Positions 11,685 to 60,515 of a DNA stretch of 64,000 nt are shown here, one piece after another. A program made the translations under genes and the position numbers. The stretch's first letter is position 1. Every line of letters begins with the position of its first letter. A model generated the notes under the pieces. The model saw nothing but the letters and a program-made list of their open reading frames with translations. It was not told where the DNA came from and made no database searches. This DNA comes from Escherichia phage FL33, in sequence record PP400788. The stretch is one strand, 5' to 3'.

Positions 11685-11713
11685 ATTATACCACATCCTT
11701 GTGGTAAAGTAAA
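11685..11713 (-). promoter_or_regulatory. Early sigma70-type promoter
   Basis: GTTTACT-17bp-TATAAT on minus strand upstream of rIIA.1. Confidence 0.55.
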
Positions 11714-13534
11714 CTATTGGCTCATCCATTCTTTACGAAGGTCAGCATTATCTCCCATGAGCATTTCAAAAAGCTCTTTCCAGTTCTCAGGAAGTTTAAC
11801 AACATCATATACTGGGTTTTGAATCATCTCACGATATTCAGATTTTTCCAAAGAGCCAAGTCCCTTAATATAACGGATGCTATGTTTAGGTAGAGCATCT
11901 TTAGCACTCTCATATTCAGCGACTGTATAAAACCATTCTTGTTTTTTACCGACCTGAGCGATGATTACAGGAGTTTTGACAAAGCGAATTCTTCCTTGTT
12001 CAAACAGTTCTGGCCAATTACTAAAAAATCCGAGCAGAGAAGGATAAATGCTTCCTAGACCATCATGGTCAGCATCAGTCATAATAGCAATATTATGATA
12101 ATTCAAGTTTTCGGCTTTTTCACCAAGAACTAATCCAGTGATTGCGCAAATATCAAACAGCTCTTTGTTTTTAAGCATATCAGCATATGACATACCCCAG
12201 CTGTTAAGAACTTTACCACGCAATGGATAACCGCCATGAAGTTCTTTATCACGAACATCAATAAGATATCCGATAGCAGAATCACCCTCAGTCAAGAAAA
12301 GAGTAGTGTCAGCATCTTTACCGCAAAGATTCGCTTTAATATGTTTGTGAACCTTAGCTTTAGAGGCCTTTTTAGCTGCTTTAGTTTCTGCTGCTTTTTC
12401 TGCCGCCAATTTACGAGCTAATGCTGCTTCAACAATAGGCATAATCAAGGCTTCGTTTTTAAGAAGTGCCTGAGCAATTTTCTTAGCATCTAATTGGATA
12501 TGATTACGAATATCACCATACGTTGACGTTAAACGTTCTTTAGTCTGAGAATCAAAACGCATGTTGCTCATGTCTCTAATAAACATCAACATTGTGAGAC
12601 ATTCTTTAACACGAGCTTTAGTGACTTCAATACCCTTATATTTCTTTTTAATACCAGGCAAAAGATGTTCACAGATATCATCCATTACACATTCAACATG
12701 ATGACCACCATTTTTAGTATGGATGTTATTCACATAAGTTAAATGACGGAAGCCATCTGGTGATGTTGTGAATGCTATAGAGACTTTATCATTTTCTTGA
12801 ATGATGTTATCTTCGCCAAATTGTTTAGCAAATCGTTTAAAATTACCATCAACCTTTTTACCATTAAATGTGAACTTGATATCAGGATAAACGACTGCCA
12901 ATGTTTGAAGTCGGTCTAAAGTAATATCTAAATAAATTTGAGATAAATTATGCTCTTCAAATGAAGAGAAATCAGGAGTGAAGATTACTTTAGTGCCTTT
13001 ACCTTTAGATTTCTTAGAAGACCATGATTTGTTTTCCATTCCGTTTGAACAGTTAACAGTGATTTCGTTTTCGCCATCTGACGTGATGCCTGTAAACAAC
13101 GTAGAGAAGATATTAGTTAAACTACTCCCGACGCCGTTCATACCACCAGTCTTGCGTTCAGAGTCATCACCAAAGTTACCACCGGCCTTTGGAATAGTCC
13201 AGGCTGCTACAGGCCCAGGAATTTGTTCACCCGTTTGGTCGGTAACTAAACCTTGAGGAATACCACGTCCGTTATCTTCCACCGAAACTTGATTATTTTT
13301 AATTTGCACATCAATTTTATTTGCAAACTTAAATGATGTACGAATAGCTTCATCAACCGAGTTGTCAATAATCTCATCGATTAATTTAACCAGGCCAGGA
13401 ACATATTCAACTTGTTGATATTTACCAAACAAAAAACGCTCGTGGGCTTCTTTAGCCGAAGAACCAATATACATACCACTACGTTTCTTAATATGTTCTA
13501 CATCTGACAATACCTTAATTTCATTTTTAATCAT
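11714..13534 (-). CDS. 39: DNA topoisomerase II large subunit gp39 (single ORF including the gene-60-equivalent C-terminal region)
   Basis: 606-aa GyrB-like ATPase; C-terminus ..LMGDNADLRKEWMSQ; no interruption, no intervening endonuclease gene. Confidence 0.92.
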   Translation of the reverse strand: MIKNEIKVLSDVEHIKKRSGMYIGSSAKEAHERFLFGKYQQVEYVPGLVKLIDEIIDNSVDEAIRTSFKFANKIDVQIKNNQVSVEDNGRGIPQGLVTDQTGEQIPGPVAAWTIPKAGGNFGDDSERKTGGMNGVGSSLTNIFSTLFTGITSDGENEITVNCSNGMENKSWSSKKSKGKGTKVIFTPDFSSFEEHNLSQIYLDITLDRLQTLAVVYPDIKFTFNGKKVDGNFKRFAKQFGEDNIIQENDKVSIAFTTSPDGFRHLTYVNNIHTKNGGHHVECVMDDICEHLLPGIKKKYKGIEVTKARVKECLTMLMFIRDMSNMRFDSQTKERLTSTYGDIRNHIQLDAKKIAQALLKNEALIMPIVEAALARKLAAEKAAETKAAKKASKAKVHKHIKANLCGKDADTTLFLTEGDSAIGYLIDVRDKELHGGYPLRGKVLNSWGMSYADMLKNKELFDICAITGLVLGEKAENLNYHNIAIMTDADHDGLGSIYPSLLGFFSNWPELFEQGRIRFVKTPVIIAQVGKKQEWFYTVAEYESAKDALPKHSIRYIKGLGSLEKSEYREMIQNPVYDVVKLPENWKELFEMLMGDNADLRKEWMSQ

Positions 13535-52195: not shown

Positions 52196-52405
52196 TTAAT
52201 TTCGCAATTTATTAAGTTCTTCATAATCAATCCAGGATTCTAATCCTGATGGCAAATCAGATTCAATTTCCCAAAGAAGTTCTTCAATTTTATGAAGACG
52301 ATCTAATTCTTCAGCTGGAATAGTAACCATTGATGGAGTTCTTGATACACTAATATCGTAAATCATATTTACCCCAGTTTGACCATACAATCGCCGTATT
52401 TCCAC
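52196..52405 (-). CDS. Hypothetical protein (69 aa)
   Basis: Co-oriented ORF. Confidence 0.45.
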   Translation of the reverse strand: MEIRRLYGQTGVNMIYDISVSRTPSMVTIPAEELDRLHKIEELLWEIESDLPSGLESWIDYEELNKLRN

Positions 52406-52584
52406 TTAGAAATAGACTTTTCGCCGTTAGAATAATAAACTTCGAGTTTAGCACGATTATTTTTAATTTGAATAACCTTGGCTGTCATCAAAGTTCCATA
52501 CCCGTAGTAAACTGCAACTTCATCACCTACATATACCGCGCTTCCGCGGTAATCATGGATATAATCAGTTCCTTCGAGAATCAT
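52369..52584 (-). CDS. Hypothetical protein (71 aa)
   Basis: Co-oriented ORF overlapping nrdC start. Confidence 0.45.
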   Translation of the reverse strand: MILEGTDYIHDYRGSAVYVGDEVAVYYGYGTLMTAKVIQIKNNRAKLEVYYSNGEKSISKWKYGDCMVKLG

Positions 52585-52845: not shown

Positions 52846-53103
52846 TTATTCCTTAATTCCTAGTACTTGTTTAAAAGTCTCGTCGTAATCAAGACTTTGG
52901 CCCGTTTGTTCTTTATGTTTGTATATAATATCACTTACTTCTGATAGCATATTTTTATATGAACGAGTTAAAGCAGATTTAAGCACGCTATATCTATCAG
53001 GAAATTTACCATGTTCATTATAATAAGCTATTGCTAATTCACGGACTGCTTTTTCAGCAATCTCCATATATTCTTTACGCTTTGTCATTTTCTTCTCGGT
53101 CAA
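52846..53103 (-). CDS. Hypothetical protein (85 aa)
   Basis: Co-oriented ORF. Confidence 0.5.
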
Positions 53104-53389
53104 ATCGGTGTTTACAATGGCGGCATTTATAACGAAGATTACTAGTCTGCCAATGAACTAATTGTACCTGTTCAGTACCGCATTCAGGACAATTAGGAAC
53201 GTTTTTAGAAGCACGTTCGCGGCGTTCAACCATGACCATTACAGAATCCCAATTAACAGGAGGGCTATAATCATCACAACCATAAATCTTTCCACGCATT
53301 TCCAGATCGTCTTCTTCACCAGCCATAATAATTTTAATTAGACTAGAATTACTTGAAGCTGCAATGTCTTCTAATAGACGCTTTTTCAT
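53075..53389 (-). CDS. Hypothetical zinc-finger-like protein (104 aa)
   Basis: Contains CPECG...CRHC cysteine pairs. Confidence 0.5.
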
Positions 53390-54315
53390 TTCAATACCTC
53401 AATAGCATTACGTAAACCATTTGCTTTTGCATTAAGAGCTTTTAACAATTTGGTGTGTTCTGCAATTTGGGCTTCAACTTCAATCAAACGAGCATTGAGA
53501 TATTCACGTTCTTCGCTCAAGTTATCAACCTTTTCTACTTTAGGTTCTTTTACAACTGGCTTATACGTATTAGGATTCTTCAGTTTAATTAGAATGCGTG
53601 AACTGTATAACATTGAACCATTATCTTCGGTTTCATCATACATTTCTACTACGTCCATGATTTTTAACATCATGCGAAGTTTATAAGACAACGAACGAAT
53701 AGTTTTGTTGTGCTTATTAATTTCTTTAGCTGTCATGGTGCCGAGATTACGTGAGTAATAATAAGGAACCTGGATATTAATTAACACTGATGAACCACCT
53801 GGCTTGTGTGTTACTTCATCAGCAATAACCCAGTCCTTAACATGAACTGTATTTGTACGGTCATCGCCCATGGTAAACAGTTTGCGAGCATGCTTAAAAA
53901 GCATATTCACTTGAGTATTGAATTGACAAGCAAATTTATCAGCAAATTTAGTTTCAGGAATGGTAGATAACCAATCAGCCAAATGGGTCTTTTTAACATC
54001 GTTAATAATAGTAAATTCAACCAAATCGGTTATAGATGTCGCAGATTTAATGAAGCTCGGCTTCATAAAGTTTTTAATGTTATCACGAGCTACAGTAGAA
54101 GATAACATACGAGAACGTTTAAACCATTCAAGCAAATTGCCTAACGAATGAGAATAAGCGTTTTGAGTATCTTTACAGATATGATTTTCCTGGCCAACAT
54201 ATTGAAGGAAATCACGAAGAATATTATTGATTACTGCTCTGTGTCCGATCTGATAATTACGGTGTTTAGTAATAAGACTGTCAAAATAATCAATATAATG
54301 TTTACGAGTTTTCAT
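53386..54315 (-). CDS. Paralog family member 1 (309 aa), C-terminal coiled coil
   Basis: N-term MKTRKHYIDYF; C-terminal heptad-like [42 protein letters not shown]. Confidence 0.65.
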   Translation of the reverse strand: MKTRKHYIDYFDSLITKHRNYQIGHRAVINNILRDFLQYVGQENHICKDTQNAYSHSLGNLLEWFKRSRMLSSTVARDNIKNFMKPSFIKSATSITDLVEFTIINDVKKTHLADWLSTIPETKFADKFACQFNTQVNMLFKHARKLFTMGDDRTNTVHVKDWVIADEVTHKPGGSSVLINIQVPYYYSRNLGTMTAKEINKHNKTIRSLSYKLRMMLKIMDVVEMYDETEDNGSMLYSSRILIKLKNPNTYKPVVKEPKVEKVDNLSEEREYLNARLIEVEAQIAEHTKLLKALNAKANGLRNAIEVLK

Positions 54316-54366
54316 GTTCTTCTCACTTATTAATGATTTATACTCCGAGCCATCCTTGGCTTTAAA

Positions 54367-55368
54367 TTACTTAATTAACTGTAAAGCTTGTTCAAGACGA
54401 TCCAAGCGATTAACAGATTCTTCCCAAATCCTTTTAGCCTGCTCATATTCTTTCTGCGCTTTATTAGAAATTTCTAGAACTTCTTTATAAGCTTTTTCTA
54501 GTGCAATAACTTCTGGACGAATTTCTACCGATTCACCTGAATCGTCAAGACATTCCATTAGTTCCTCAAGGGTAGTTTCTTCTTTAGGAGTATTCACAAT
54601 TTCATCACATTTTTGTTGGTAAATTTCTTTATCAGTAGGTGAGTACGCACACTTTACTTCACGAAGACTAATTACGAGTTTATATCCTTCCCAGCCGCAT
54701 ATATTCTTAAAAGGATATGTATGAATATTTTCTACTGTTTCCATACAAAGTAATGCGGTCTCTAATTGACGAGTTATAGTGCTAGCAATTGAGAAAAATT
54801 TATTAATATTCTTTTGGTTAGTTTCTGGTGTAAAAAATCCATAATTCACAAAAATAGCTACTTTATTTTTATCAAGTTCATATTCTTTTATGATAATCAT
54901 ATCAGAAGCCAAAGGATGAATTTGACGATAATCGCCATAACATAATTTAGAAGCTGATTTTAGAATTTGCTTCTTAAAAAGTCTGAAATTACTAATCCAA
55001 CGACGAGTAAAAATATTCTCAGGGTCTTCTTTGACAGTAAGATGATAAGAATTAACATCACCGAACCAATTATATCCTACTACATCTTTGGTTCGTTTAA
55101 TTTCTTTCCCAAAATTACCAAGAATATCCCGATTAACCAAATATGAAAGAAGACGAGACTCTTTAAAGGTTTTCTTGATAACATCTTTATCTACACGGCT
55201 AGAAATTTTACGAATTTCATGAATAAATTTAGTAGAAGAAACAATACTTGCATCAACACTATTGAGCCATTGATTGATAATAGAAAGAACGCTATTTTGG
55301 CCAAACACTGGTATAGCTTTATCATCAATAACACTATTGAATGATTTGATATATTCGTTACGAGTCAT
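54367..55368 (-). CDS. Paralog family member 2 (333 aa), C-terminal coiled coil
   Basis: ATG at 55368 (MTRNEYIKSF) downstream of early promoter; shared motif RRWISNFRLFKKQILKSASKL. Confidence 0.65.
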   Translation of the reverse strand: MTRNEYIKSFNSVIDDKAIPVFGQNSVLSIINQWLNSVDASIVSSTKFIHEIRKISSRVDKDVIKKTFKESRLLSYLVNRDILGNFGKEIKRTKDVVGYNWFGDVNSYHLTVKEDPENIFTRRWISNFRLFKKQILKSASKLCYGDYRQIHPLASDMIIIKEYELDKNKVAIFVNYGFFTPETNQKNINKFFSIASTITRQLETALLCMETVENIHTYPFKNICGWEGYKLVISLREVKCAYSPTDKEIYQQKCDEIVNTPKEETTLEELMECLDDSGESVEIRPEVIALEKAYKEVLEISNKAQKEYEQAKRIWEESVNRLDRLEQALQLIK

Positions 55369-55396
55369 ATTAATCTCCTCAGTAGAAAGTAAGAAC

Positions 55397-55425
55397 ATTA
55401 TACCACATCCGTGTGGTAAAGTAAA
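55397..55425 (-). promoter_or_regulatory. Early sigma70-type promoter
   Basis: TTTACT-17bp-TATAAT on minus strand. Confidence 0.55.
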
Positions 55426-56454
55426 CTAGTTCAGTGCATTTAGTGCATTGTTCAGTTTAGAACGTTGCTTCGTGAGATTTTTGACTTTTTCTTGAGCTTT
55501 TTCTAGCATCTTTTCAGCTTCTAACACTTCATTAGTTGCTTTAACGAGTTCATCATCTACTGCTTTAAGAGACTCCTCAATCGCATCTGCATGCCATTTT
55601 TCAACAGGTTTAAGACTCGGATTTTCAATAGGAAGAAAATTCACTTTATTGAATTTCCATGCATCTTTATTACCTGAACTATACATCCAAAATTTAGGAT
55701 CGTTTGATGAGTAATTGGATAAATTTAAATTTAAGTTATCTTGCACTTCCTGCTTTTTCTCTTGCGTGACTTCGTCCTTTCTTAAAAAATCGTATTTAAA
55801 TGAAACGATCATATCAAGTTCATATGTTGTTGTGTCTAATTTAAATCGTTCGAAATGCTTTGAAATCTTAGACTGAACACCAGCAACAACATCCATATAC
55901 TTAAATGCTTCTGTCAACTGTGATTTAAGGCATTCACAAATTGAAAGAGAATTTTTTGTATTAGGTTTAAAGCTAATTCGTGCGGTTCTATTATTTTCTT
56001 TTAATGGTCTTACTTCCATCTGAAGAGTATAACCATCAAATTTCAGATTCTTTAAGTTAATTTCAGAACCTTTTAATCGACTCGCAGTTGATAAAATTTG
56101 CTTTAATTGTCTACGGAACAGAGCAATAAATCTCCATTCAATACGATAATGATTTGGATTGAAAAATCCAGATGATAAATTGACCTTACTTTGACCAACG
56201 CCTTGAACAAATAGAGGATTTTTATAATCAATAGTTTTACAGAAATCGGTGAGCTGCTCACGAGCAGTCATTTGCGTAATATACCCTGCTTTACTAAAAT
56301 TACGCACCCATTCACTGCTATTCAGATATTTAAAGTGATGAATAGCACGATTAACTTTATCAAAGTCTAAATTATTTTCACACAAAAATGTCATAACATC
56401 ACGAGTATCGCTAGCGTTACGAACCATATCTTCAATTTGAGAACGAGTTTTCAT
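55426..56454 (-). CDS. Paralog family member 3 (342 aa), C-terminal coiled coil
   Basis: N-term MKTRSQIEDM; shared motif YRIEWRFIALFRRQLKQILSTASRLK. Confidence 0.65.
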   Translation of the reverse strand: MKTRSQIEDMVRNASDTRDVMTFLCENNLDFDKVNRAIHHFKYLNSSEWVRNFSKAGYITQMTAREQLTDFCKTIDYKNPLFVQGVGQSKVNLSSGFFNPNHYRIEWRFIALFRRQLKQILSTASRLKGSEINLKNLKFDGYTLQMEVRPLKENNRTARISFKPNTKNSLSICECLKSQLTEAFKYMDVVAGVQSKISKHFERFKLDTTTYELDMIVSFKYDFLRKDEVTQEKKQEVQDNLNLNLSNYSSNDPKFWMYSSGNKDAWKFNKVNFLPIENPSLKPVEKWHADAIEESLKAVDDELVKATNEVLEAEKMLEKAQEKVKNLTKQRSKLNNALNALN

Positions 56455-56462
56455 AGTGTTCC

Positions 56463-57353
56463 TTAAGATTTAAGTAAATCAACAATTTTAATTAACTTTT
56501 CACGCTCAGATTTAGCTTTACTACTCAATCCAGATAGTCTGAAAATTTCATCGTCATATTGTTGAATAGAAATATTCAGCTCTTCAATCTGTTTATTAAA
56601 ATAATCAATTTGTTCAGAATGTTTTTCGTTACTACGAACTGGTACAGGTTTCGTAGGCAATTTAGTTGAACTGGATTCATCCGGGCGATAAATTAAAATA
56701 CAACTTGAACCAATAGGGCATTTTGCACCAGATGAATATTCTAATGTTCCAGCTTCTTTTAAAACTTCAAAAGCCAAACAGAGATGATGCCCCATATTAA
56801 CATAATCTGTAGAGCGAGCTCTGATGTAATAATCATCTCCACGAATACTAAATTTAAAGCATTTAAGGTCTTCTGTATTATTGGTCTTAAAAATCATTTG
56901 TTTATCTAGACCTTTAGCTAATCGAGCGCCTAATGCTAATAATCGTCGTTGATTTTCCCACAAATCCGCTATCATTTGATCGAATGATAATTTCGGCATT
57001 AGTCGACCATAAAGGTCATATCCTTTATTATAATTACGAAGGATTTCACTCGCATTAATACGAGACAACGCTCCAATTTTATTAAGGGCTTTCATAATGC
57101 GATTAGATAAACTCATTCCAGACCCATTTGTTCGCTGTAAATGTTTTTCTAATCCAAAGCCAATATCAACTTTAAACTTATCTAAAATTTCGGCATGAAC
57201 ATCTCTGTCAATAACATTCAAATCCAAAGTTGGGTTAAATCTATGAAAAAATTTATCTGGCTCTCCACGACGAAATACAGTCCATTCATTCATCATTTTT
57301 TTATTAACTAAAGATTTAATTACTGCATTGACATTATTAATTACGACTGACAT
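56463..57353 (-). CDS. Paralog family member 4 (296 aa), C-terminal coiled coil
   Basis: ATG at 57353 with GAGG RBS; shared motif WENQRRLLALGARLAKGL. Confidence 0.6.
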   Translation of the reverse strand: MSVVINNVNAVIKSLVNKKMMNEWTVFRRGEPDKFFHRFNPTLDLNVIDRDVHAEILDKFKVDIGFGLEKHLQRTNGSGMSLSNRIMKALNKIGALSRINASEILRNYNKGYDLYGRLMPKLSFDQMIADLWENQRRLLALGARLAKGLDKQMIFKTNNTEDLKCFKFSIRGDDYYIRARSTDYVNMGHHLCLAFEVLKEAGTLEYSSGAKCPIGSSCILIYRPDESSSTKLPTKPVPVRSNEKHSEQIDYFNKQIEELNISIQQYDDEIFRLSGLSSKAKSEREKLIKIVDLLKS

Positions 57354-57360
57354 ATTTTCC

Positions 57361-57768
57361 TCACTCAATTTCAATTTTACTAAATACACAGAATATGATT
57401 GAACAGACTACATAAGCACCGCACACAGATTGAACTAATACCATTCCAAAGAACCAAACAATATTATCAAACAGTGTCTGTTTTACGTCGAAAGGACGTA
57501 AACTTACAGTAATATTATCACCTTTTTCTATTGAAGAATACATCTCTGGGGAAATATATTCACTAAATCTATAACCGTCTTTAAGTTCATATACGGCAAT
57601 AAACGATAAACTAGACCCCTTTCCTTGTGTTCCTGTAATGGTATTAACTACAGTAACATCATAATCTTTATAGTGCATATAATCATTAATAGCATAATAA
57701 CCGTATGCAACTACTACACATAAACAACATATCAATAAATTCAATCTTTTAATTATCAACTGTTTCAT
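57361..57768 (-). CDS. Membrane protein (135 aa)
   Basis: N- and C-terminal hydrophobic helices. Confidence 0.55.
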   Translation of the reverse strand: MKQLIIKRLNLLICCLCVVVAYGYYAINDYMHYKDYDVTVVNTITGTQGKGSSLSFIAVYELKDGYRFSEYISPEMYSSIEKGDNITVSLRPFDVKQTLFDNIVWFFGMVLVQSVCGAYVVCSIIFCVFSKIEIE

Positions 57769-57823
57769 AATAATCTCAATTAAAAGGGCTTAGAACCATT
57801 ATACCATCCTTGGTATAAAGCGG

Positions 57824-58351
57824 TTATGCGAGTACCGTCTTTAACCGTTCTTCAAACTTCCGAAGAGTATTTTGGCGTTCAGCTCTTTGCTTTTTGTAAG
57901 TTTCAATACGCTCTGAAATGAGAGAGTATCGTTCATTTACTGATTCTTTCATAAAATCAGGAATTTCACGAGAAGCTTTAATCTCATCAAATTTATCAAT
58001 AACAGCTTGCTCTTCAGCAATTAAGTTATCATACATTAAAATATCTTTCTTGATGAACTCAATATCTTCTTGAGTTACACGAGATAATTTAGATACTTTA
58101 TCCTTTTTGTACTGTTCGTTAGTATCACGAGACCAGTGCAATGTACGATTTTTATTCGTATTCTTGTAAATTTCTACAATACCAATCTCATCGATAATAA
58201 CGATCCAATTCCAACGGGATTTGTAAATTTGTCCTCCATCAACAGTGATTTCACCTCCGATTGAGATGTCATTAAAGAACTTACTTTGTGCTTCAGATTT
58301 AAATTTACCATCGTTGTAATTTACCAAGTTGAAAATATCTTTAGCGTTCAT
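57824..58351 (-). CDS. Hypothetical protein (175 aa)
   Basis: ORF downstream of early promoter; charged C-terminal helix. Confidence 0.55.
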   Translation of the reverse strand: MNAKDIFNLVNYNDGKFKSEAQSKFFNDISIGGEITVDGGQIYKSRWNWIVIIDEIGIVEIYKNTNKNRTLHWSRDTNEQYKKDKVSKLSRVTQEDIEFIKKDILMYDNLIAEEQAVIDKFDEIKASREIPDFMKESVNERYSLISERIETYKKQRAERQNTLRKFEERLKTVLA

Positions 58352-58379: not shown

Positions 58380-58408
58380 ATAGTACCACAGAGGAACAGT
58401 CTTGTAAA
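58380..58408 (-). promoter_or_regulatory. Early sigma70-type promoter (repeated element)
   Basis: TTTACA-17bp-TACTAT with conserved flanks. Confidence 0.6.
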
Positions 58409-58411
58409 CCA

Positions 58412-58796: not shown

Positions 58797-59516
58797 TTAG
58801 GATTCTTCTAAATGTCTTTTCTGAAAAGTTGATACCATACTACGATACGGTTCATTTGGATATCCATGTTTTATAGCTTCCTTTGTAAATTTTCTCCATC
58901 CACATTTAGTTTCTTTCCAAAGCTCGAATAATTCATCTTCATACTGCCATATAGTTAAATGAGAACGCTTTGCAGCTTTAATTCCATTAATATGCTTTTC
59001 TTTTACTACAGGATTGCTTAGTTTCTTTTTAATAATATTACTAACTTTTCTAACAAAAACTGGGTCCTTATATCGTTGCGAAGTTTTTATTGAAGTGTTT
59101 AATTTAGCTTCCGGCGTGGATGTGACCTCTTTCATCTTTTTCTTCATATGCTGTATATGATTAGGATTTTTCCATAAATTTATAGAATGCTTTTTGCATT
59201 TTATCCTAGTTTCATCTGCAACCTTTCCTCCTTCACCCCCGTATGACAGGTTAACGCAGTTTTTTCCATATTTCAATTTACCTGCCATGATATATAATAT
59301 TTCGGCTTGTACCATTTTATCATAATTATCAAAAACTTCTAAAACCGTTTTTGATAATATATGGTCATTTGACACTTTTACACGTTCTATATAATTTCCA
59401 CTACCAACATACGAATCATTGATGTTATTAGTTATATGTCGACCATAATAGTATTTCTTAATACCTGTCTTTAAATTTAATATTTCAGTTTTATAGATAG
59501 TAAAATATTTTTTCAT
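58797..59516 (-). CDS. Putative GIY-YIG-like homing endonuclease (candidate mobile gene)
   Basis: 239 aa; N-terminal KKYYYGRH..SYVGSG resembles GIY-x10-YIG; Lys-rich C-terminal half; start overlaps upstream ATPase stop. Confidence 0.45.
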   Translation of the reverse strand: MKKYFTIYKTEILNLKTGIKKYYYGRHITNNINDSYVGSGNYIERVKVSNDHILSKTVLEVFDNYDKMVQAEILYIMAGKLKYGKNCVNLSYGGEGGKVADETRIKCKKHSINLWKNPNHIQHMKKKMKEVTSTPEAKLNTSIKTSQRYKDPVFVRKVSNIIKKKLSNPVVKEKHINGIKAAKRSHLTIWQYEDELFELWKETKCGWRKFTKEAIKHGYPNEPYRSMVSTFQKRHLEES

Positions 59517-60481
59517 TTTAATAATACCGTTTCAGCAATTTCTTCCCAACCGTTTTTGTCGGTCATAATAAAGTCAGCAAGATAAAGAGCAGTACGCAGT
59601 GAAACATTGCGTAAACGATTAACATTAACTTTCATCCATGATAATGCTTTATAAGTTTCTTCATCAGAAAGACCGCGCTTTTGCATCATGTCAGTTGAAA
59701 GAATAACATCTTCAACCCTGACCATAATTTCTTCATTGGTGTGAACACCCAAATCCAAATAAACTGAGCGGGACACTAATGCTTGTAAGTGTGGGGCAAG
59801 TTTAGTACCACGGTCTAATTCGCGGTCAATATCAACGTTTGTGATAAAAACAATCGTTCCTTTAAATTCAAACTCACGGTCAATGCCTTTTTCTTCTAAG
59901 TAAGAAGATGCAGTGCTCCAGCAGACTTTACGGGTCTCTCCAGTGTCCAGAGCGGCTTTTAGAAGATTAAGAATATCCATATCAGAGAAAACATCCACAT
60001 CATCAATCAAAAGGACAGAATTCTCTTCACGATTATTCCAAAGCTGCTCATAAAGACCAATACCAGAGATTTTACCATTAATGCTTTTATATTCAATGTA
60101 TCCAATATCATTTGCTTTATTTAAAGCTTTATCTAAAGAATACGTTTTACCAATACCTGCTGCGCCAGAGATAATTAATGAACGAATATTTCCATTAATA
60201 ATACCATTCGTCATCATTCCCATAACATTAAATCTTTTATTAATGCGGGTTTTCATATCTTCATATGATTCTTTAACTTCTTCAACTTTTACACCATCAT
60301 ATGAAATATCTGATTTGTAAACCCAAACACCACGACGTTTACCGTCAATTTCAACAAAAACTTTACCATCTCCTTGTGCATCTACCGGAGCATTATCTGG
60401 GAACCATTCGCCTAAGAGCTCAAAAGTTCCAGAGATTTCTTTACCGAAGTAGATACCCTTATTGATAGTTACAGTTTTCAT
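59513..60481 (-). CDS. P-loop NTPase (AAA-like ATPase), function unknown
   Basis: 322 aa from ATG at 60481; Walker A GAAGIGKT, Walker B VLLIDDVD; own promoter upstream. Confidence 0.7.
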   Translation of the reverse strand: MKTVTINKGIYFGKEISGTFELLGEWFPDNAPVDAQGDGKVFVEIDGKRRGVWVYKSDISYDGVKVEEVKESYEDMKTRINKRFNVMGMMTNGIINGNIRSLIISGAAGIGKTYSLDKALNKANDIGYIEYKSINGKISGIGLYEQLWNNREENSVLLIDDVDVFSDMDILNLLKAALDTGETRKVCWSTASSYLEEKGIDREFEFKGTIVFITNVDIDRELDRGTKLAPHLQALVSRSVYLDLGVHTNEEIMVRVEDVILSTDMMQKRGLSDEETYKALSWMKVNVNRLRNVSLRTALYLADFIMTDKNGWEEIAETVLLK

Positions 60482-60515
60482 TTTATTCTCCAAATCCGTA
60501 TCAGTTGATAGTTGT

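Follow-up and report, generated by a model that had tools for sequence, protein, structure and literature searches.

nrdC.3 to nrdC.6 of a T4-like phage: a tandem array of diverged paralogues with a putative role in counter-defence

The array and its genes

Four adjacent phage genes of similar length encode proteins with little sequence identity to each other. Do they descend from a common ancestor, and do they act against host defences? The locus was studied within a window of 64,000 nt, the whole stretch of DNA analysed here. The window matches Escherichia phage FL34, a Tequatrovirus of the T4 type, at 100% identity. A sequence-only reading had described four tandem paralogues of 309, 333, 342 and 296 aa, and the coordinates of the open reading frames bear these sizes out. 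Synteny with the annotated phages ime09 and T4 identifies the genes as nrdC.3, nrdC.4, nrdC.5 and nrdC.6. All four are adjacent and co-directional on the minus strand. In transcription order nrdC.6 comes first (56463..57353, 296 aa, pI 9.2) and is the most diverged member, followed by nrdC.5 (55426..56454, 342 aa, pI 9.2), nrdC.4 (54367..55368, 333 aa, pI 6.9) and nrdC.3 (53386..54315, 309 aa, pI 9.4). The start of nrdC.4 was set at 333 aa because this ATG follows a Shine-Dalgarno sequence, GAGGAG, read from the sequence 6 nt upstream (55375..55380, minus strand). An alternative start (343 aa) would fall inside the -10 region of the promoter described below. NrdC.3, NrdC.5 and NrdC.6 are basic with net charges of +9 to +12.5 and NrdC.4 is neutral. 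A pI of 9.2-9.4, as in three of the four proteins, is compatible with nucleic-acid as well as protein binding.

Many GenBank records carry a thioredoxin label for such proteins. None of the four shows a thioredoxin match in Pfam or NCBIfam or contains a CxxC motif, and the label derives from the name of the neighbouring nrdC gene.

Homology of the four proteins

Pfam and PHROGs each distribute the array over three separate families of unknown function, and each window protein clearly belongs to one of them. NrdC.5 (phrog_2351) matches DUF7235 (PF23882) over residues 1-342 with 412.7 bits (cut-off 30, E=1.4e-123), while NrdC.3, NrdC.4 and NrdC.6 give no match to DUF7235 at E<=1. NrdC.3 and NrdC.4 fall into phrog_1435 (1.3e-116 and 1.6e-166, respectively) and PF26897, which is precomputed on 96 of 96 homologues in their joint alignment. 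NrdC.6 matches phrog_2257 (1.9e-152), and its homologues carry the precomputed PF26899. Here we unite these families as one superfamily.

The claim of tandem paralogy was checked by pairwise and profile alignment. Pairwise BLASTP is significant for nrdC.3/nrdC.4 only (E=2e-8); profile methods link all four. HHalign gives 98% (E=4e-14) for nrdC.3 against nrdC.4 and 90.5% (E=1.4e-6) for these two combined against nrdC.5. The latter comparison scores 53 versus 14.9±1.9 in a column-shuffle null and pairs core columns 68-228 with 53-206. The merged profile of nrdC.3, nrdC.4 and nrdC.5 aligns to nrdC.6 with a local score of 35 (null 13.7±2.3); globally the probability is 71% (E=5e-6). A full HMMER scan over 1.84 billion representative proteins yielded metagenomic intermediates. 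In one bridging sequence, P0270, the core region matches the family HMMs of nrdC.5, nrdC.6, nrdC.4 and nrdC.3. The core of P0268 matches those of nrdC.6, nrdC.5 and nrdC.4, and P0281 those of nrdC.4 and nrdC.5. Whichever of the four proteins starts the iterative search, it ends in the same set of ~309 sequences, containing 0 of 5,478 decoys and not a single unrelated ORF. The superfamily is small, with 32 representatives among the 1.84 billion proteins, and was seen only in T4-like phages (Straboviridae, a name taken from the hit records).

The position of nrdC.6 requires separate consideration. It might be unrelated, leaving only nrdC.3, nrdC.4 and perhaps nrdC.5 as paralogues and reducing the likeness to a coiled coil and chance motifs. 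Against the single families nrdC.4 and nrdC.5 its HHalign comparisons are not significant (E 0.07-0.11), with scores of 19-20.5 inside the shuffle null (maximum 22-24). Pfam and PHROGs keep it apart, and the nrdC.3-nrdC.6 profile match falls largely in the coiled-coil region. However, the local score of 35 with the merged profile extends over motifs 1 and 2, outside the coiled coil. P0268, P0269 and P0270 match both the nrdC.6 and the nrdC.5 HMM through the core, the iterative search started at nrdC.6 recovers every family without decoys, and length class, locus and C-terminal ending are as in the other three. We thus include nrdC.6 on the strength of merged profiles, intermediates and iterative search, and consider a separate origin highly improbable. 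Profile-profile comparison, bridging intermediates and the decoy-controlled iterative search show that the array consists of four paralogues from ancient duplications, strongly diverged, in one superfamily.

Conserved motifs and predicted structure

Three of the proteins were said to share an M(K)TR start, and indeed NrdC.3 and NrdC.5 begin with MKTR and NrdC.4 with MTR; NrdC.6 begins with MSVV. The mid-protein motif proposed for all four is in register in every alignment made. It is one among 4-5 collinear conserved blocks, in order FKxSRxLSxxVAxxxLxNFxK, the mid-protein helix, LxxALxxMDxVE, a KPV/PVPV turn and a terminal LxxA(L/I)xxLK. The core helix motif, always on the minus strand, comprises residues 126-147 of NrdC.3 (DKFACQFNTQVNMLFKHARKLF, 53875..53940; in register in two alignments and HHalign), 122-142 of NrdC.4 (RRWISNFRLFKKQILKSASKL, 54943..55005; placed by alignments and within model helices 119-142), 103-128 of NrdC.5 (YRIEWRFIALFRRQLKQILSTASRLK, 56071..56148; alignments, model helix 103-125) and 132-149 of NrdC.6 (WENQRRLLALGARLAKGL, 56907..56960; in-register alignments). 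The terminal 12 residues with LxxA(L/I)xxLK are the best-conserved stretch between the paralogues. Outside the motifs divergence is strong, as had been stated, with pairwise identities of 14-21%, and the superfamily alignments contain no invariant columns.

A C-terminal heptad helix in all four proteins is borne out by a heptad periodicity test and, for NrdC.4 and NrdC.5, by AlphaFold. The test is a crude, home-made and shuffle-based one rather than COILS or MARCOIL. Within the last 42 residues, 9-11 of 12 a/d positions are hydrophobic in each protein. The helix spans approximately residues 265-309 in NrdC.3 (53389..53523, minus strand; 10/12 a/d positions hydrophobic, shuffle p=0.0005) and 252-296 in NrdC.6 (56466..56600, minus strand; 9/12, p=0.0085). 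For NrdC.4 and NrdC.5 AlphaFold predicts a single, long helix of 48-59 residues, namely residues 285-332 of NrdC.4 (54373..54516, minus strand; block pLDDT 82-88, heptad p=0.0085) and 283-341 of NrdC.5 (55432..55608, minus strand; pLDDT 80-93, 11/12, p<0.0005).

The complete NrdC.4 model reaches a pLDDT of 84.4 and a pTM of 0.67, and was built on a mixed-family alignment that presupposes homology. For NrdC.5, modelling on the protein's own alignment gave a poor result (pLDDT 55.9). The order of elements in the NrdC.4 model and in this independent, low-confidence NrdC.5 model matches: core helix, β-β, α, β-β, linker and long helix. Foldseek against viral models returned 18 matches at E<=1e-3, all of them uncharacterised 300-370-aa proteins of T4-like phages, including an nrdC.3-type protein of Yersinia phage fPS-65 (E=9e-8). 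Based on the modelled NrdC.4, the partly modelled NrdC.5 and alignment for NrdC.3 and NrdC.6, the proteins may share a build in which a helical N-terminal domain and an α/β core are followed by a flexible low-complexity linker and an amphipathic heptad helix of 45-60 residues.

Promoters and probable early transcription

An internal early promoter had been reported to split the array. It proves to be a perfect match to the T4 early consensus, GTTTAC-N14-GTGGTATAAT (55397..55426, minus strand, 0 mismatches), located between nrdC.5 and nrdC.4. The nrdC.5 stop codon overlaps it by one base, ending in the first G of the match. Both T4 and ime09 conserve the site, which the annotation of phage SA20RB lists as an early promoter. 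Across the window the consensus is matched 19 times, exclusively on the minus strand, versus 0.66 expected. The internal promoter is predicted to drive nrdC.4, nrdC.3 and downstream genes. A second match with 2 mismatches precedes nrdC.8 (58380..58409, minus strand), and an equivalent site is annotated in SA20RB. It is probably the start of the transcript reaching nrdC.7, nrdC.6 and nrdC.5. In SA20RB, nrdC.8 and nrdC.7 are moreover annotated as separated by a terminator and a middle promoter. The consensus matches, together with a published account that classes nrdC.5 as early, lead us to infer early transcription of the four genes from sigma-70-type T4 early promoters, including the one inside the array.

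Variation, copy number and selection

Window NrdC.5 shows 93.8% amino-acid identity to its T4 counterpart (NP_049703), and the gene lies in the same order between nrdC.6 and nrdC.4. Comparing FL34 with T4, dN/dS of nrdC.3-nrdC.6 amounts to 0.15-0.29, indicating purifying selection. The neighbours 49, nrdC, nrdC.1 and nrdC.2 show values of 0-0.06, nrdC.8 of 0.10 and nrdC.7 of 0.34. The rapid divergence ascribed to the array needs qualification. Its genes evolve faster than 49, nrdC, nrdC.1 and nrdC.2, but they do so under purifying selection, nrdC.7 exceeds them, and the duplications are old since the subfamilies are common to several phage genera. Positive selection was not detected at the crude dN/dS level (below 0.3, FL34 vs T4).

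The variation that stands out most comes from replaced alleles and lost genes, not from point substitution. nrdC.3 occurs as two alleles, ~60% identical, within flanks that are otherwise 97-100% identical; the FL34 allele is only 62% identical to that of T4. Among the T4-like genomes compared, copy number ranges from 2 to 4 between genera. Mosigvirus retains nrdC.6 and nrdC.3, while Dhakavirus and Gaprivervirus retain nrdC.6, nrdC.5 and nrdC.4. Within Tequatrovirus, nrdC.4 is missing in ~7% of the records with nrdC.6. Natural fusion and deletion variants occur as well. In these respects the genes behave as accessory ones.

Proposed counter-defence function and mechanism

The sequence-only reading had proposed host-interaction or counter-defence genes. 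For one member this agrees with published genetics: T4 nrdC.5, plasmid-borne and alone, restores plating on cells with the SIR2 defence gene dsr1 (Srikant, Guegler and Laub, eLife 2022, PMC9391042). Window nrdC.5 is the orthologue of this gene at the same position, and the anti-Dsr1 role would carry over to it. The other three window genes are remote paralogues. As the array paralogues are 14-21% identical to T4 NrdC.5 and to each other, the same target is not to be assumed. Because their paralogue NrdC.5 is already known to switch off Dsr1, nrdC.3, nrdC.4 and nrdC.6 appear to be good candidates for inhibitors of other defences. The flanking genes point in a similar direction, gp49.2 being an anti-OLD factor (PMC13096335) and nrdC.1 an anti-Septu factor (bioRxiv 2025.11.20.689424).

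Overall the array is best explained, in our moderately confident assessment, by ancient phage-only paralogues that are expressed early, oligomerise and each neutralise one host defence protein. Each paralogue would be produced before the late structural proteins and would oligomerise via its terminal helix, and the variable surface of the N-terminal domain and core would bind and neutralise its target. The proteins most likely act as stoichiometric binders rather than enzymes, since no column is invariant and neither Pfam nor NCBIfam assigns a domain. For NrdC.5 the target would be Dsr1, an NAD-depleting SIR2 protein; here the genetic effect is published and the binding itself is proposed. The major capsid protein acts as the trigger of the Dsr1 sensor (PMC12803255). 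NrdC.5 would most plausibly occupy the TPR sensor of Dsr1 or block its NADase before this capsid protein accumulates. The remaining three paralogues would be specific for other targets.

NrdC.5 finds its best mechanistic counterpart in DSAD1 of phage SPbeta, which inhibits the SIR2 protein DSR2. DSAD1 is a phage protein neutralising a sirtuin-type, NAD-depleting defence whose sensor answers a late structural protein. The analogy is one of mode of action only, and the defence is DSR2 of Bacillus in one case and Dsr1 of E. coli in the other.

Alternatively, the proteins could serve early host takeover or bind nucleic acids, for instance with host DNA, RNA or transcription as their target, which would make the anti-Dsr1 effect of NrdC.5 indirect. 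The net charge of NrdC.3, NrdC.5 and NrdC.6 and the shared motif, a basic amphipathic helix, would suit such a function, but NrdC.4 is neutral. Below threshold, the N-terminal region of NrdC.3 also matches the SAM-like domain with which tyrosine recombinases bind DNA (NCBIfam E=0.001, Pfam E=0.066). This match is however far under the curated cut-offs and recurs in just 4 of the 72 members (best E 0.051). Pfam and NCBIfam searches of the four proteins revealed no helix-turn-helix, zinc finger or any other domain that binds nucleic acids. Moreover the genes are variably present and located among proven anti-defence genes. We regard this explanation as unlikely.

Another possibility is a hetero-oligomeric complex of all four proteins, joined through the conserved C-terminal helices and directed at a single common target. 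The heptad helices in all four, the pronounced conservation of the last 12 residues and the adjacent, co-directional genes are consistent with this. In contrast, different genera keep differing subsets of 2 to 4 genes, many Tequatroviruses do without nrdC.4, a promoter divides the array, and nrdC.5 alone on a plasmid sufficed on dsr1 cells (PMC9391042). We consider a joint complex quite improbable.

Returning to separate inhibitors with individual targets, a more specific version brings in phage tail terminator and tail completion proteins (lambda gpU, SPP1 gp17-like, DUF3168), which count among the comparable systems. The α/β core might be an exapted copy of a virion fold of the tail-terminator type. 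NrdC.3-6 would then be early decoys, oligomerised by coiled coils, that occupy TPR-type defence sensors for conserved phage structural folds before late proteins appear. Each would be tuned to a different sensor lineage (for instance capsid sensors of the Dsr1/Avs7 type or tail-terminator sensors of the Avs15 type). We consider this very doubtful.

The array extends known biology modestly and does not constitute a new kind of system. The dmd-tifA-adfA anti-toxin island of T-even phages likewise consists of clustered, early, non-essential, variable and host-range-determining genes (PMC9391042). Islands of that type contain unrelated small proteins, whereas nrdC.3-6 represent one 300-aa scaffold that was duplicated and diversified in place.

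The nrdC.3-nrdC.6 locus

The region 53000-58000 is 100% identical to Escherichia phage FL34, the name used here for the phage under study, and 80-97% identical to more than 700 T4-like phages (megablast). Phages ime09 and T4 are among the closest FL34 relatives found, which are classified as Tequatrovirus. Based on synteny with annotated ime09 and T4, the four consecutive minus strand ORFs are nrdC.3 (53386-54315, 309 aa), nrdC.4 (54367-55368, 333 aa), nrdC.5 (55426-56454, 342 aa) and nrdC.6 (56463-57353, 296 aa). They are located in a long early-gene block with nrdC on one side and nrdC.7-11 on the other. All descriptive claims of the sequence-only reading about these genes are borne out, including the M(K)TR start in three members (MKTR in nrdC.3, MTR in nrdC.4, MKTR in nrdC.5), while nrdC.6 starts with MSVV. 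Longer versions of nrdC.4 (343 aa, with an extension beginning within a promoter -10) and nrdC.6 (308 aa) were rejected; the shorter starts were chosen because each is preceded by a good ribosome-binding site and corresponds to the start annotated in T4.

Many GenBank records label the four genes 'thioredoxin'. Neither a thioredoxin domain nor a CxxC motif was found in any of the four proteins by domain-model and sequence scan. Thioredoxin identity was rejected, the label being carried over from the locus name.

Homology of the four proteins

The four genes had been proposed to be diverged paralogues sharing a mid-protein basic/hydrophobic motif. The motif is real and stays in register in every alignment made, and the remainder is indeed strongly diverged (14-21% pairwise identity in the joint alignment). 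Pairwise alignment supports the relationship in part: nrdC.3 and nrdC.4 match significantly (BLASTP E=2e-8 across 204 residues), whereas every other pair gave E>0.1. PHROGs likewise assigns nrdC.3 and nrdC.4 to a shared family and gives nrdC.5 and nrdC.6 a family each. The Pfam split is parallel, with PF26897 (nrdC.3/nrdC.4), PF23882/DUF7235 (nrdC.5) and PF26899 (nrdC.6).

Family alignments (C3 to C6 for nrdC.3 to nrdC.6) were built from database homologues together with the genes at the syntenic position in Gaprivervirus, Dhakavirus and Mosigvirus, and compared using HHalign, with column shuffles as null (mean score ~15, sd 3, maximum 25). C3 and C4 match over 225 columns (98%, E=4e-14, score 101.5) and C4 and C5 over 241 collinear columns (56%, E=1e-4, score 39.7). 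C3-C6 (30%, E=5e-4, score 33.9) is mostly C-terminal, and C3-C5 covers 120 columns (5%, E=0.007, score 26.9). C4-C6 (<1%, E=0.07, score 20.5) and C5-C6 (<1%, E=0.11, score 19.2) fall inside the null. Merging families raised the signal. C3+C4 against C5 reached 90.5% (E=1.4e-6, score 53, core only; null 14.9±1.9) in local and 94% (E=2e-8) in global mode. C3+C4+C5 against C6 gave a local score of 35 spanning the first two conserved blocks (null 13.7±2.3) and 71% (E=5e-6) globally.

Intermediate sequences point the same way. A joint-profile HMMER search retrieved just 32 matches at E≤0.001 among 1.84 billion representative proteins; 13 are full-length (285-364 aa) and new to the family. Several such members match more than one family HMM via the core region, beyond the coiled coil: the database protein P0270 matches C5 (25 bits), C6 (15.5), C4 (10.6) and C3 (8.4), P0268 and P0269 match C6 (~47 bits) as well as C5 and C4, and P0281 matches C4 (15 bits) and C5 (18 bits). 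Moreover, four jackhmmer-style iterations, one per FL34 protein (inclusion 1e-3, E-values scaled to 100,000 sequences), all converge on one set of ~309 sequences holding all four families. Not one of the 5,478 decoys (shuffled or reversed sequences) was recruited, nor was any unrelated ORF from the window or the fetched loci. Profile comparison thus links the four genes through merged profiles, intermediates and iterative search. From these sequence comparisons we conclude that nrdC.3-nrdC.6 are true, if very old, paralogues.

Word-indexed homologue searches gave nearly only close relatives; nrdC.5-like proteins of Gaprivervirus and Dhakavirus with 25% identity were recovered by tblastn. In the 72-member alignment across the four families, 12 members match Pfam DUF7235 at E≤0.1. 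The nrdC.5 orthologues number nine, and therefore at least three members of other subfamilies weakly match the curated nrdC.5 model. Searching PDB sequences with three family profiles found nothing. A Pfam 'PHL domain' and a 'Phage_int_SAM_1'/XerD match in nrdC.3 were rejected as domains, both being sub-threshold and restricted to one subfamily.

Predicted structure

Conservation across families peaks at NrdC.4 residues 61-90, 131-150, 201-210 and 321-333. The mid-protein motif is one among several collinear conserved blocks and is modelled as a core helix (NrdC.4 119-142, NrdC.5 103-125). The C-terminal heptad helix suggested before holds as well: a heptad pattern occurs in the last 42 residues of all four proteins (p <0.0005 to 0.0085 against shuffles), and the stretch forms a single long helix in the models of NrdC.4 and NrdC.5, the two proteins modelled.

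The remote nrdC.5-like sequences from Gaprivervirus and Dhakavirus, recovered by tblastn, were kept out of the alignments used for structure prediction. The NrdC.4 model, based on the 72 sequences mixing all four families, reached pLDDT 84.4 and pTM 0.67. It consists of helices (3-84), a small sheet (88-110), helices (119-148), strands (158-174), a helix (185-208), strands (212-235), two further helices followed by a low-confidence linker, and the terminal helix (285-332). NrdC.5, folded with its own shallow alignment (mean column identity 90%), gave a poor model (pLDDT 55.9), which was kept out of the fold searches because it is unusable at this value. Its order is N-terminal helices, core helix and a β-β-α-β-β unit, with 225-282 disordered and a confident terminal helix at 283-341. 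Foldseek matches among viral models are all uncharacterised proteins of T4-like phages. Against PDB no match was obtained at E≤0.001; the best ones, TRAPP Bet3 and Rpb11, were rejected as noise.

Distribution and variation

The array varies in copy number by genus. In transcription order it reads C6-C5-C4-C3 in Tequatrovirus and C6, a small ORF, a C5-like gene and C4 in both Gaprivervirus and Dhakavirus, while Mosigvirus has only two genes, a C6-like and a C3-like one. Since subfamilies are common to several genera, the duplications are older than those genera. Distant members occur in Klebsiella and Enterobacter T4-like phages at the same site upstream of nrdC. Relatives were found by tblastn in T4-like phages of Pectobacterium, Edwardsiella, Kosakonia, Cronobacter and Erwinia, and Foldseek viral models add Acinetobacter, Serratia and Yersinia phages. 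Among these Foldseek matches, two proteins of phage Acj61 with consecutive accessions may be encoded by adjacent genes.

The small ORF (67-78 aa) is conserved between nrdC.6 and the nrdC.5-like gene in Gaprivervirus and Dhakavirus; Tequatrovirus is without it. Three copies from these loci (L002 5811-6026, L003 5730-5933, L005 5076-5312) are 45-51% identical to each other.

Within Tequatrovirus records nrdC.3 exists as two allele classes. The FL34 gene (53386-54315) is only 62% identical to that of T4 (locus L006, 4434-5360; dS ~1.0) with flanking genes at 97-100% (the directly adjacent nrdC.2 and nrdC.4 at 97-99%), and the class it belongs to is the one closer to the Mosigvirus gene (75-79%). 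nrdC.4 is absent from ~7% of the Tequatrovirus records that carry nrdC.6. A metagenome protein of 299 aa (P0056) is a natural fusion of the NrdC.5 middle and the NrdC.3 C-terminal half with nrdC.4 deleted, equivalent to ~55650-56010 joined to 53386-53900 of the window; the join falls on a short KVN/QVN similarity where the paralogue positions are not equivalent. NrdC.6 of Shigella phage Sf25 (P0058, 378 aa) exhibits an internal tandem duplication of ~82 residues, with IRAHSTDYVNMG...QIEEL repeated. Between FL34 and T4, dN/dS is 0.15-0.29 in nrdC.3-nrdC.6 compared to 0-0.06 in genes 49, nrdC, nrdC.1 and nrdC.2. Hence nrdC.3-6 are constrained, but less than these neighbours. Their variation comes mainly by allele exchange, loss and rearrangement, which is typical of accessory, host-range-type genes.

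Expression signals

The internal early promoter proposed to divide the array is confirmed as a perfect T4 early promoter consensus at the nrdC.5/nrdC.4 boundary (GTTTACTTTACCACACGGATGTGGTATAAT, 55426-55397, minus strand), conserved in relatives. Its first base is the final base of the nrdC.5 stop codon; next come the ribosome-binding site of nrdC.4, GAGGAG, and then the ATG of that gene. Compared to T4 and ime09 there are two differences, both in the spacer, and the equivalent site of phage SA20RB carries an early-promoter annotation. The window contains 19 occurrences of the consensus, all of them on the minus strand, where 0.66 would be expected. A further match lies upstream of nrdC.8 (58380-58409). 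Given these two predicted promoters, the array would comprise two early units, which we read as one from nrdC.8 or nrdC.7 to nrdC.5 and one from nrdC.4 onward.

Two perfect minus strand promoters ~44 kb apart (11685-11714 and 55397-55426) are identical in 29 of 30 bases including the spacer. Recombination-driven deletions and amplifications have been described in T4, and such near-identical repeats could serve as their substrates.

Putative function

Very few inhibitors of Dsr1-type sirtuin defences are known, NrdC.5 being one of them. The failure of a T4 deletion mutant on E. coli ECOR17 has been traced to the SIR2 defence gene dsr1, and T4 nrdC.5 supplied on a plasmid allows plating again on cells that express dsr1 (Srikant, Guegler and Laub, eLife 2022, PMC9391042). 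FL34 NrdC.5 shares 94% identity with T4 NrdC.5, and for nrdC.5 alone the expected counter-defence role is backed by this published genetic effect. A 2026 preprint (PMC12803255) reports that the major capsid protein of the phage triggers the TPR sensor of Dsr1, and that tail terminators are among the other structural folds recognised by related sensors. Nearby, gene 49.2 inhibits OLD (PMC13096335) and nrdC.1 inhibits Septu (bioRxiv 2025.11.20.689424).

In our best reading nrdC.3-6 form one family that has diversified, and its protein products, made early, inhibit host defences. The inhibitor would bind the defence protein stoichiometrically as an oligomer rather than act as an enzyme. We favour binding over catalysis because no invariant residue was found across the superfamily alignments, the build is modular and the terminal helix is conserved. 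Early synthesis would allow the inhibitor to engage the sensor ahead of the accumulation of a late trigger. The genetic effect concerns NrdC.5 only; the mechanistic steps are what we infer.

Nucleic-acid-binding takeover proteins would fit the pI above 9 in three members, and we consider this rather improbable. Ocr-type DNA mimicry was rejected for nrdC.3-nrdC.6 because the proteins are basic or neutral. A single hetero-oligomeric complex of all four proteins seems slightly less probable still. That nrdC.6 is not homologous to the other three is very unlikely, even if its single-family comparisons with C4 and C5 do not rise above the null and it is the least securely attached member, linked only via merged profiles and intermediates.

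The genes, their hypothetical status and the function of NrdC.5 were already known; in T4, nrdC.3, nrdC.4 and nrdC.6 have been hypothetical genes for decades. What appears to be new is the union of three database families into one superfamily as judged from sequence (an earlier mention of the paralogy in the T4 literature is possible), its domain layout and the pattern of copy number and alleles across genera. NrdC.5 appears to be built on a scaffold of defined domain layout that exists in four diverged copies. Hence nrdC.3, nrdC.4 and nrdC.6 are candidates for new anti-defence specificities, and we predict them to be anti-defence paralogues with other targets, a prediction that also appears to be new. 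Domain swaps between paralogues could map the determinants of target choice, three families of 'unknown function' can be united, and the 'thioredoxin' mis-annotation, which is widespread, can be put right. We do not see a new kind of system here, but an extension of known biology that is useful and can be tested. The locus is a clear example of a counter-defence gene duplicated and diversified in place in a lytic phage, and the differences in copy number between genera could help in the search for host-range correlates.

Other elements of the early block

At 52196-52584, between 49.2 and nrdC, two small ORFs (69 and 71 aa) take the place of the 102-aa T4 gene 49.3 in FL34 and ime09, which makes this a further exchangeable cassette of the early block. 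A 239-aa ORF in the nrdC.9/nrdC.10 interval (58797-59516, minus strand) matches phrog_314, a family of homing endonucleases in PHROGs (E=6e-30); Pfam and NCBIfam gave no match to it. T4 and ime09 are without a gene at this position, and the endonuclease is therefore an extra mobile element in FL34. The adjacent nrdC.10 (59513-60493, minus strand, 326 aa) shows sub-threshold matches to NTPase domains of the AAA and STAND types, AAA_14 (E=8e-5) and nSTAND3 (E=5e-4), suggesting an ATPase-like protein in a neighbourhood rich in anti-defence genes.
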